Origin: an uncultured Spirochaetota bacterium
GTDB lineage: Bacteria; Spirochaetota; UBA4802; UBA5550
Reading direction: 5' to 3'
Length of the DNA: 64,000 nucleotides
NCBI GenBank assembly: GCA_963827275.1
Contig: CAWHAA010000010.1
Span: 192,001 to 256,000, forward strand
Shown one piece after another: positions 16,614 through 19,583 of the stretch. The stretch's first letter is position 1, and the number at the start of each line of letters is the position of its first letter. The notes below the pieces were generated by a model, which saw only the letters and a program-made list of their open reading frames with translations, was not told the origin of the DNA and did no database searches. The position numbers and the translations under genes were made by a program.

Positions 16614-16862
16614 CAACCTGGTAAATTATGATAGGAGTGTATCATTAATAATCATTAGTATGATCGGGCGTAATGAGGAATTACTTGATTACTTTTTTGG
16701 ATGAATTTTTAAAAATTTATTATATTACATTGAATTTGTTGATTCTCGCCCCCTCCATGCGACGGGGGATTCAAGAATGATCGCACATGTGTTGAAAAAA
16801 AATGCTTGCTAAAATAAAATCGAGCGACTATTGGAACATATGCAACGAGGAGGCTTTTCCCG

Positions 16863-17228
16863 ATGAAAAAATTTCTCTTTCTCCTGCTCATCCCGGCCGC
16901 GCTCTACTGCAACGGGAAGCCGAAAATCGTATTCGATACGCCCACGCACGATTTCGGCAAGCAGGAACAGAATGTTGAATTGAAACATATTTTTATCTTC
17001 AAAAATGCCGGCGACGGGACACTCCTGATAGATAAAATAGTTCCCGGTTGAGGCTGCACCGGCGTCCTTCTCTCAAAGAAGGACATCCCTGCCGGAGGCA
17101 GCGGACAGATTGAAGTTTCATTAAAAACCGGCTCACATACCGGAAGGATCAGCAAATCGATCATGGTATATTCAAATGATCCGGCACAGAAAACCGTCAG
17201 GCTGGTCATATCGGCCGATGTAAAATAG
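16863..17228 (+). CDS. DUF1573-family lipoprotein, candidate selenoprotein (TGA 17049-17051 = Sec, UGC motif)
   Basis: GAGGAGG RBS; DFG..F.FKN.G...L.I..IVPG-TGA-GCTG....IPAGGSGQI...KSIMVYSNDP; frame stays open to TAG 17226-17228 (121 aa). Confidence 0.8.
17059..17095 (+). promoter_or_regulatory. Putative SECIS-like hairpin
   Basis: GTCCTTCT-CTCAA-AGAAGGAC (17064-17084) begins 12 nt after the TGA; outer CCGGC/GCCGG pairing. Confidence 0.5.
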
Positions 17229-17232
17229 GATT

Positions 17233-19374
17233 GTGACCGCGGTGGCGACCCTGAAAACCCTGCCCGGATCTCCGCTCCCGCCGGGAGCGCACTTCACCAG
17301 GAACGGCGTCCAGTTCTCACTATTCAGCAGGCACTGCACGTCGGTAACGCTGCTCCTGTTTGAAACCGATGAGCCTGACGCGAACTACACCGAGGTGCCG
17401 CTTGACCCGGACATCAACCGGACGGGCGACATCTGGCATATACTGGTGGAGGGGATCGAGGAAGGCCAGCTTTACGGCTACCTCATCGACGGGCCCTATG
17501 ATCCGCCCGCGGGCCAGCGCTACAACAAGAACAAGCTCATCCTCGACCCGTGCGCCCGGGCCATCACCGGCACGCGCCGGTGGGACCTCACCATGGCGCA
17601 GGGATATGATGAGCACTCGCCCGACCTGGACCTTTCCTTTTCACGGACCAGCAGCATTCCCTTCATGCCCCGCTGCGTCGCGATCGACCGGCCGATGGTG
17701 CTGCACGGCACGCCGCTCAGCGTACCGGAGCGGGACTGCATCATTTACGAGCTGCACGTCAGGGGGTTCACCTGCCACCGGTCGTCAGGAGTCGGGCGCG
17801 GCGGCACCTTTCGCGGCCTTGTTGAAAAAATTCCCTACCTGAAAGATCTCGGCGTCAACGCCGTCGAGCTTATGCCGGTGCAGGAGTTCGACGAGGACGA
17901 GAACACGAACATAAACCCGCTCACCGGGGAGAAGCTCAAGAATTACTGGGGCTACAGCACCATCGCCTTCTTCGCGCCGAAGGGCTCCTACTCCGCGTCG
18001 GGGAGCATGGGGGAGCAGGTACGCGAATTCAGGGAGATGGTCACCGCCTTTCATGACGCGGGGATCGAGGTGATACTGGACGTCGTGTTCAACCACACGG
18101 CCGAGGGCGACGAGACCGGCCCCACCCTCTCCTTCCGCGGGATCGACAACTCGATCTATTACATCCTGAAAGAAGACCGCCGCTATTACACGAACTTCTC
18201 CGGATGCGGCAACACCTTCAACTGCAACCACCCCCTGGTGCGCGAATTCATACTCGAGGCGCTCCGCTACTGGGTCATCGACATGAACGTGGACGGGTTC
18301 CGCTTTGACCTTGCTTCCATCCTGGGGCGCGACCAGAACGGCAGCATCATGAGCAACCCGCCGCTCCTCGAGACGATCAGCGAGGACCCGATTCTCAGGA
18401 ACTGCAAGATCATCGCCGAGGCGTGGGACGCCGCCGGGGCCTACCAGGTGGGAGAATTCCCCGGCCGCTGGGCCGAATGGAACGGCAAGTACCGCGACGA
18501 CGTGCGGCGGTTCTGGTGCGGGGAGGAGAACAGCGTCGGCTATTTTGCCACCCGCGTCACCGGCAGCTCCGACCTGTACGGCGACTCGCCCAACGGCCCG
18601 CTCCAGAGCATCAACTTCGTCACCTGCCACGACGGGTTCACCCTGAACGACCTGGTGAGCTACCAGCGCAAGCGGAACATCGAAAACGGCGAGAATGACA
18701 AAGACGGGGAGGAGAACAACGCGACCTGCTGCATCGGCGCCGAGGGGCCTGACCGCTCGCCGGCGGTCACGAAGCAGCGGCTGAAGCAGATAAAGAACTT
18801 CATCGCAACGCTCTTCCTCTCCCAGGGGATCCCCATGCTCCTGGCGGGCGATGAGTTCAGGAGGACCCAGAAGGGCAATAACAACGCCTACTGCCAGGAC
18901 AACGAGATCTCCTGGGTCGACTGGAGGCTCATGGAGGAAAACCGGGACCTCCTGCGCTTCACCCGCGAGATGATACGGTTCAGGCAGCGCCACCCCGTCC
19001 TGAGAAAAGGGAGCTTTTTCGCCGGCGCCGCGCATGGCGGCATAAGCGCCCCGGACATTGCCTGGCACGGGCACCATGTGAACGAGCCGGACTGGACCCC
19101 GTCAAGCCGCTCAATAGCAATGCTCATCAACGGCGAATACGCCGGGCTGACCGGCGACGCCTCCGATAATGATCTGTACGTGATTTTCAACGCGGCAGGA
19201 TCGGACCGCGTGTTCGATATTCCCGAAGCCCCGTCGGGCAAAGGATGGAGGGTGGCGGTCGATACCGCCAAGGACTCGCCCGAAGAAATTTACTCCGATG
19301 GGAAAGGACCGCTCATAAAGAAAAACCGCTACCCGGTGGGCAGGCTGTCCACCGTGGTGCTGGTCAGTGATTAG
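17233..19374 (+). CDS. glgX: Glycogen debranching enzyme (GH13 isoamylase)
   Basis: IIYELHVRGFT, NYWGY, DVVFNHTAEG, DGFRFDLAS, IAEAWD, TCHDGFTL, GNNNAYCQDNE. Confidence 0.97.
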   Translation: MTAVATLKTLPGSPLPPGAHFTRNGVQFSLFSRHCTSVTLLLFETDEPDANYTEVPLDPDINRTGDIWHILVEGIEEGQLYGYLIDGPYDPPAGQRYNKNKLILDPCARAITGTRRWDLTMAQGYDEHSPDLDLSFSRTSSIPFMPRCVAIDRPMVLHGTPLSVPERDCIIYELHVRGFTCHRSSGVGRGGTFRGLVEKIPYLKDLGVNAVELMPVQEFDEDENTNINPLTGEKLKNYWGYSTIAFFAPKGSYSASGSMGEQVREFREMVTAFHDAGIEVILDVVFNHTAEGDETGPTLSFRGIDNSIYYILKEDRRYYTNFSGCGNTFNCNHPLVREFILEALRYWVIDMNVDGFRFDLASILGRDQNGSIMSNPPLLETISEDPILRNCKIIAEAWDAAGAYQVGEFPGRWAEWNGKYRDDVRRFWCGEENSVGYFATRVTGSSDLYGDSPNGPLQSINFVTCHDGFTLNDLVSYQRKRNIENGENDKDGEENNATCCIGAEGPDRSPAVTKQRLKQIKNFIATLFLSQGIPMLLAGDEFRRTQKGNNNAYCQDNEISWVDWRLMEENRDLLRFTREMIRFRQRHPVLRKGSFFAGAAHGGISAPDIAWHGHHVNEPDWTPSSRSIAMLINGEYAGLTGDASDNDLYVIFNAAGSDRVFDIPEAPSGKGWRVAVDTAKDSPEEIYSDGKGPLIKKNRYPVGRLSTVVLVSD

Positions 19375-19583
19375 ACGGCCGCCTTCGCGTTCAGGTCCTG
19401 CATCATTTTCGTGATCATGCCGTCGTCCATGCCATGGGCGCGGGCGCCCTGCTCTATCGTCTCGGTGACGGCGATGTGGCAGCCTATGCAGTGCATGCCG
19501 TAGCCGGTCAGGATAGGAGCGGCCTTGGGAAACTGGCGGAGAAGCTCACCGAAGGTCATATCTTTATTTATTTTATCTGCCAT
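19371..19583 (-). CDS. DUF1858-domain protein (CxxC)
   Basis: INKDMTFGE..GMHCIGC..ETIEQGA.AHG. Confidence 0.88.
   Translation of the reverse strand: MADKINKDMTFGELLRQFPKAAPILTGYGMHCIGCHIAVTETIEQGARAHGMDDGMITKMMQDLNAKAAV

Follow-up and report, generated by a model that had tools for sequence, protein, structure and literature searches.

According to section 5 of a recent review (PMC13188914), the bacterial SECIS consensus has a G among the first two loop nucleotides and a loop located 16-37 nt from the UGA; the canonical form is taken here to have a loop of 3-9 nt, a stem of 4-16 bp and an energy of -7.5 kcal/mol or lower. BSepDB records a canonical SECIS in 87.4% of 57,630 entries and leaves the remainder uncharacterised (PMC13326102), 13% of known genes were missed in the bSECISearch benchmark (PMC12013277), and non-canonical bacterial SECIS elements are acknowledged, as uncharacterised, in the accessible parts of these same three sources. 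In the accessible portions of the literature on bacterial SECIS elements, with subscription journals, the 2005 bSECISearch paper and two Haft papers lying outside this scope, no two-hairpin or distal form is described.

The closest described protein family is also known from prediction. A 'DUF1573 domain-containing protein, UGC' stands among the bacterial selenoproteins in two reviews (PMC9312934 and PMC13188914), both of which refer back to the study of the Olavius symbiont, in which six new families, OS_HP2 among them, were described (PMC1976440, Zhang and Gladyshev 2007); the SECIS figure legend of that paper names five of the six and omits OS_HP2. As far as the consulted sections of these three sources go, the family is predicted only, with no function or selenium labelling given. 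Likewise, no function is stated in the consulted parts of the literature that mentions DUF1573, and one BSepDB supplement gave no DUF1573 match. The selenoprotein family is thus not new, having been predicted since 2007, and the novelty implied by the earlier note's hidden candidate selenoprotein is not supported: OS_HP2 has long been catalogued and an NCBIfam family, NF041425, exists for it. Since the family is already catalogued, the selenoprotein by itself does no more than correct the annotation of a spirochaete order without cultured members. What appears from the sequence to be new is the recoding signal, which would consist of two hairpins with a G-loop beyond the 37-nt limit.

The gene lies at 16863..17228 (+) of the window, the whole 64,000-nt stretch of DNA that was analysed, and was assigned as DUF1573/OS_HP2-related from profile matches and an alignment of the loci of the order. 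The frame opened by ATG 16863 has TGA 17049-17051 (+), following ...DKIVPG, as its sole interruption and ends with TAG 17226-17228, so that the read-through product has 121 aa and contains U63-G64-C65. On the basis of the sequence, a structural model and the alignment, the in-frame UGA is the predicted Sec63 codon, the residue lying in the turn that joins strand 54-61 to strand 65-69; its partner in the U-G-C motif, Cys65 (17055..17057, +), is invariant in a 17-sequence alignment. Four bases separate the TAG from GTG 17233 of a glgX-like ORF, and alignment to TGC homologues places the TGA exactly where the CGC motif of DUF1573 has its first Cys. The earlier note had described the continued frame, its end next to glgX and the position of the TGA in the same way, and truncation of the protein by standard gene calling, which it had foreseen, is supported.

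A ribosome-binding site with GGAGG is present at 16847..16853 (+), and most of 19 relatives have a GGAGG-like motif before the ATG. Further upstream, an A-tract with a -35-like hexamer (16800..16811, +) is likely part of a promoter; a similar A-tract/TTG motif was judged by eye to precede the gene in most of the 19 relatives, and a consensus promoter scan gave an overlapping site at 16792-16820, with 4 sites observed against 2.7 expected. An in-genome search retrieved no second close copy of the DUF1573 Sec gene. In two public DNA runs, each belonging to a different study, contigs span the TGA codon: all 17 differences between record 2 of X1 and the gene region were seen and none falls in the TGA codon, and neither does any of the 26 differences listed out of 27 for record 11 of X2. 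The gene region had no coverage in the single RNA-labelled run examined. The closest named records are at most 78% identical to the protein, their loci being a biased sample chosen by an IPAGG-containing peptide pattern.

The protein matches the whole Pfam DUF1573 model (PF07610) over aa 22-120 with 79.3 bits against a cut-off of 26.1. Among NCBIfam families it scores highest with OS_HP2_seleno (NF041425), also at 79.3 bits and hence under the 100-bit cut-off, whereas Desulfobacterales members score 127-131 bits; this would place the gene in the DUF1573/UGC family and not in the strict NF041425 subfamily. It shares with OS_HP2 the Pfam domain, the Sec at the first Cys of CGC, the signal peptide and, in the Desulfobacterales members above the cut-off that were checked, the same two-hairpin layout. 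It differs in having 121 aa, one domain and a likely lipobox Cys, against open frames of about 230-510 codons for the Sec matches in Desulfobacterota, and in its spirochaete order, its glgX linkage and its lower score. The gene represents a single-domain, probably lipid-anchored spirochaete branch of DUF1573/UGC located upstream of glgX. Matches to NF041425 were found in 58 of 151 genomes of the phylum of the Desulfobacterales record, many with one TGA, and for the Desulfobacterota Sec loci sequence was taken from the best 30 loci only. One Syntrophobacteraceae genome (G063) has five such matches (L150, L152-L155), each with one TGA. A longer Sec DUF1573 gene in one spirochaete genome (L065, in G030) groups with Desulfobacterota and has their 39-nt spacing; judging from its sequence, either transfer or mis-binning may be its origin.

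TGA 17049 is very likely decoded as selenocysteine. The genome encodes selA, selB, selC and selD, the tRNA-Sec (anticodon UCA), selA and selB genes being neighbours on contig C8, and its selD itself has an in-frame TGA. Homologues are present in 48 of the 61 genomes of the order, 45 of them with TGA at this column and three with Cys only; when paralogues are counted, the order has 56 loci, 48 with TGA and 8 with TGC, although these genomes are kin, so that the counts overstate independence and do not represent separate trials. All but one of the 45 TGA-carrying genomes have a selA, and the remaining genome is 65% complete and has a selD with TGA. Among the nine genomes lacking selA, one has the TGA form, one the Cys form and seven no match; two Cys-only genomes of the order nonetheless have selA. 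When 201 genomes sampled from the phylum were searched, matches outside the order came from eight genomes, and all of these lack an internal stop. Desulfobacterota also have Sec forms of the DUF1573 gene, and Sec is thus kept in two phyla. The earlier note had proposed reading the TGA as Sec and had suggested looking for alternation of TGA and Cys at this column, for the Sec machinery, for the codon in independent data and for its restriction to one strain. All of these computational checks came out in favour of Sec: both codons occur at the column, the machinery is complete, contigs of two DNA studies keep the TGA with no listed difference in it, and its presence in 45 genomes shows that it is not confined to one strain.

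We attach very little probability to the opposing readings, namely that the TGA is a true stop, left by a pseudogene or a sequencing error, or encodes Trp or Gly through an altered code. The latter might find support in three database homologues with W at the Sec column, but these residues are likely code-4 readings by gene callers on contigs of about 1 kb. A C-x-C or W-x-C motif is present in 137 of the 150 top family representatives, and there too the W is likely a TGA read under another code. Genome-wide, 1664 out of 3680 rough gene calls terminate in TGA, which is therefore an ordinary stop; the tRNA-Trp has anticodon CCA, which reads UGG only, and the tRNA-Sec with UCA is separate. With an ordinary TGA stop and a tRNA-Trp of this kind there is no code change, as the earlier note had also concluded. 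The frame downstream of the TGA is kept in 48 loci and independent contigs retain the codon. Pseudogene, error and global recoding were accordingly rejected on the tRNAs, the TGA-stop count, the conservation in the order and the independent contigs.

Two hairpins can be drawn after the UGA. Hairpin 1 (17064..17084, +) has 8 bp and a 5-nt loop without G, the loop lying 20 nt after the UGA, and is predicted to be a spacer-compacting element; hairpin 2 (17086..17105, +) has a GGA loop (17094-17096) 42 nt after the UGA and is predicted to be the SelB-binding SECIS apex. Their stem energies are -11.4 and -10.8 kcal/mol, respectively. The free mRNA is predicted to be most stable as one long stem, within which the GGA loop is buried; without the UGA and the six bases that follow it, the two hairpins replace the long stem in the fold prediction. 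Among 15 genes of the same genus, synonymous identity is 0.815 over codons 64-81 versus 0.48-0.55 in four other segments. Across 25 genes, 84.9% of cells are paired in the two-hairpin structure with 15 compensatory cells, a level that none of 500 shuffles reached, and in the helix of hairpin 2 alone 94% of cells are paired. For the rival long stem 77.6% are paired, with one compensatory cell in its distinct helix. The single long stem was thus rejected as the SECIS, being less conserved and yielding to the two hairpins without the UGA and six bases. A pair in hairpin 2, formed by the wobble base of Pro76 and the first base of codon 80, covaries among 46 genes (U-A in 27, C-G in 15, G-C in 2, mismatch in 2). 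The RNAalifold consensus of 16 genes recovers hairpin 2 and pairs the 5' part otherwise, over the UGA. An Rfam search gave four weak matches, all far under the gathering score.

Comparison with codon-resampled nulls separates Sec genes from Cys genes. For hairpins 1 and 2, the median z is -2.5 and -1.5 across the 48 Sec genes from spirochaetes and -1.9 for either hairpin across the 22 from Desulfobacterota, versus 0.05 and 0.05, -0.7 and 0.06, and -0.3 and 0.4 in three Cys sets, the last of these being five Cys genes that share the IPAGG peptide. A z below -1 was obtained in 46 (hairpin 1) and 37 (hairpin 2) of the 48 spirochaete genes and in 21 and 17 of the 22 Desulfobacterota genes; among the Cys genes this holds, for hairpins 1 and 2, in one gene each of a set of 7 that includes a spurious row, in three and one of a set of 9, and in none of the 5 IPAGG genes for either hairpin. 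These counts cover all but two spirochaete Cys loci and six Desulfobacterota loci. In Spirochaetota as well as Desulfobacterota, the two hairpins are thus a feature of the Sec genes and not of the Cys genes, although the relatedness of the genomes means that the counts are not separate trials.

Which of the two hairpins is the SECIS is less obvious. Both have a canonical loop size, stem length and energy, yet the G rule and the 16-37 nt spacing do not fall on one hairpin: hairpin 1 has its loop at 20 nt but no G, and hairpin 2 has GGA at 42 nt. Hairpin 2 resembles the canonical SECIS in being a stem-loop 3' of the UGA in the coding region with a 3-nt loop starting with GG and an energy below -7.5 kcal/mol, and differs from it in that the G-loop lies 42 nt after the UGA (39 in most Desulfobacterota), behind a second conserved hairpin. 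A loop starting with G is found on hairpin 2 in 51 of 54 spirochaete and in all 22 Desulfobacterota Sec genes, and in the region of hairpin 1 in 9 of these spirochaete and 2 of these Desulfobacterota genes; the spirochaete loop counts score L026 as a failure though its hairpin 2 is intact, and omit L037. Only two of the 48 spirochaete Sec genes, L051 and L055, have no stable hairpin 2, and they are also the only two with Leu-Leu-Gly, which gives a GGN triloop on hairpin 1, 21 nt from the UGA. L051 and L055 were not sisters in the first tree, and a tree joining them had a higher score and was not rejected (p-AU 0.70), so the loop switch may represent one or two events.

From these sequence patterns, hairpin 2 is probably the SelB site. 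Against this, Gly78 of the protein also constrains the GG of its loop, and we considered the alternative that Sec is inserted with hairpin 1 as the SECIS, at canonical spacing and under a relaxed loop rule, hairpin 2 being an accessory or a by-product of P-A-G-G. The loop of hairpin 1 is located 15-22 nt after the UGA in nearly all Sec genes, synonymous selection is stronger on hairpin 1 than on hairpin 2, and the TGA is kept in the two Sec genes without hairpin 2. In addition, strain variants of this species, like the minority of genes counted above, have a hairpin 1 loop that starts with G, and hairpin 1 could for this reason be the SECIS itself. Yet its loop sequence varies freely, even within this species; hairpin 2 has a covarying pair that links a synonymous to a nonsynonymous position and is absent from the IPAGG Cys genes; and a GGN triloop is found on hairpin 1 in precisely the two genes that lack hairpin 2. 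We consider hairpin 1 a rather unlikely SECIS and retain hairpin 2 as the preferred SelB site.

Other Sec genes provide a reference for the spacing. In addition to the DUF1573 gene, SelD, three formate dehydrogenase (Fdh) alpha subunits, a HesB-like and a Prx/AhpC-TSA-like protein are likely encoded by Sec genes in this genome, at C10:406688(-), C5:386743(+), C5:369032(+), C9:113417(+), C6:101741(+) and C4:261016(-); this list is a minimum, the motif scan for others being too noisy. At two further sites, C5:272851(-) and C8:429374(+), a TGA has coding-like sequence on both sides and may mark small or unlisted selenoproteins. C6:18474(+) was rejected as a Sec gene: its TGA lies in an apparently frameshifted methyl-accepting chemotaxis gene that is likely broken. 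The G-loop is located 16-17 nt from the UGA in 22 of 30 SelD genes of the order, many with a CC-GGN-GG apex as in hairpin 2, at 25 nt in 14 of 15 Prx-like genes, at 25-26 nt in 21 of 25 HesB-like genes and at about 18 nt in the three Fdh genes of this genome, so that these other selenoprotein genes follow the consensus. In the Prx-like (L185-L200) and HesB-like (L201-L230) genes, a short hairpin with its loop about 10 nt after the UGA precedes the G-loop hairpin, and tandem hairpins after the UGA may be commoner than thought.

A mechanism can be proposed in which the ribosome, on covering the UGA and the next bases, would cause the mRNA to refold from the long stem into the two hairpins. Hairpin 1 would loop out 21 nt, so that the G-loop 42 nt away would effectively be spaced about 21 nt from the UGA, much as in the signals of SelD and Fdh, and SelB would bind the GGN loop of hairpin 2. 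As this loop is the codon of the invariant Gly78, the signal would have arisen at a place where the protein sequence provides GGN in any case. The full-length product would then be exported and lipidated at Cys16, whereas a stop at the UGA would leave a piece of 62 aa with under half of the strands, likely non-functional. Extended to both phyla, the comparison makes it somewhat probable that their DUF1573 Sec genes represent a distinct SECIS class, in which SelB binds a G-loop 39-42 nt out, the intervening hairpin compacts the spacer, the loop is a movable module that shifted to the first hairpin in genes that lost the second, and the folded distance is what counts.

The N-terminus of the protein has a predicted signal peptide (16863..16910, +), with a basic N-terminus and a hydrophobic stretch, helical at residues 5-15 in the model, that ends at Cys16, the likely lipidation site. 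This Cys is kept in 39 of the 48 Sec loci, and the protein is therefore likely an exported lipoprotein lipidated at Cys16. It is preceded by Tyr, which is atypical at position -1 of a lipobox and occurs there in only 5 of 205 candidate lipoboxes of the genome. The remainder, aa 22-120 (16926..17222, +), is an Ig-like (PapD/ASH-type) beta-sandwich according to Pfam (PF07610, PF22544) and AlphaFold2, whose model has a mean pLDDT of 91.1 and seven strands, with U63 in a turn just before strand 65-69. Hence, of the exported Ig-like lipoprotein put forward in the earlier note, the fold and the export stood, and the lipid anchor is likely, given the conserved Cys, despite the unusual Tyr. The best structural match is 2qsv from Porphyromonas gingivalis (Z 14.3, rmsd 2.9, 105 residues aligned; Foldseek E 3.3e-7), but this is a 220-residue chain with 18-19% identity and a title that gives no function. 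The other top matches are PapD/ASH/VesB domains, and a PDB search by sequence gave no match.

By analogy with CsgC and nDsbD, exported Ig-like sandwiches with an exposed CxC pair (PMC3173608, in the part consulted), the U-G-C turn could be a redox site of the cell envelope, a reading that we regard as evenly poised. Its chemistry would be that of a selenol/selenenylsulfide, exchanging with thiols and disulfides of envelope proteins. Neither CsgC nor nDsbD is among the listed fold matches, however, and the likeness is one of analogy. Sec might instead be inserted for a structural Se-S bond or as a metal ligand, with no catalytic redox role, which is possible though the less probable of the two. 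The nearest folds are Ig domains of the PapD/ASH/VesB kind, for which no catalysis is known and whose roles are in binding or structure, not in redox enzymes, which counts against the redox reading; Cys versions are widespread, with Cys orthologues even in two selA-containing genomes; and, in the part of the 2026 review consulted, the predicted selenoprotein ligands are mostly metals (PMC13188914). On the other hand, Sec is costly and yet retained across two phyla, and CxC motifs, one of them on the Ig fold of CsgC (-139 mV), have isomerase-range potentials (PMC3173608). In addition, L051 (from G022) is a Sec orthologue that reads U-G-I and keeps the TGA and a GGN hairpin; its loss of Cys65 weakens the case for an obligatory Se-S bond. 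The whole picture, with Sec decoding, an envelope U-G-C redox site and a two-hairpin SECIS with SelB on hairpin 2, is in our view reasonably probable from the sequence evidence.

The downstream glgX-like isoamylase gene (17233..19374, +; Pfam CBM_48, Alpha-amylase and ISOA1-3_C) is likely co-transcribed with the Sec gene. In a neighbourhood survey covering 54 of the 56 loci, glgX was found downstream of 38 of the 48 Sec loci, in five families and frequently only tens of bases away, and of three of the six Cys loci examined; the divergent Sua5/YciO gene upstream is conserved within the family only. A DUF1858 protein of 70 aa that contains a C-x-x-C motif is encoded at 19371-19583 (-), converging on and overlapping the end of glgX, and some relatives have it in this position too. 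The breadth of the glgX link, wider than that of the upstream neighbour, could suggest that the Sec gene is a selenium-sensing leader, in which UGA termination under scarcity lowers expression of the glycogen-debranching glgX. We find this improbable: the Cys orthologues keep the glgX link, which makes selenium control of glgX unlikely, the gaps to glgX reach 150-370 nt in one family, and in an informal look no glgX was noticed beside the genes from Desulfobacterota.

The two-hairpin layout, its covariation and the natural loop-switch variants offer a direct test of whether SelB responds to folded or to linear distance. If true, a folded-distance rule could account for some of the bacterial selenoprotein genes, roughly 13%, that have no canonical SECIS; SECIS predictors would then be widened, and the limits on placing Sec in recombinant proteins would be loosened.
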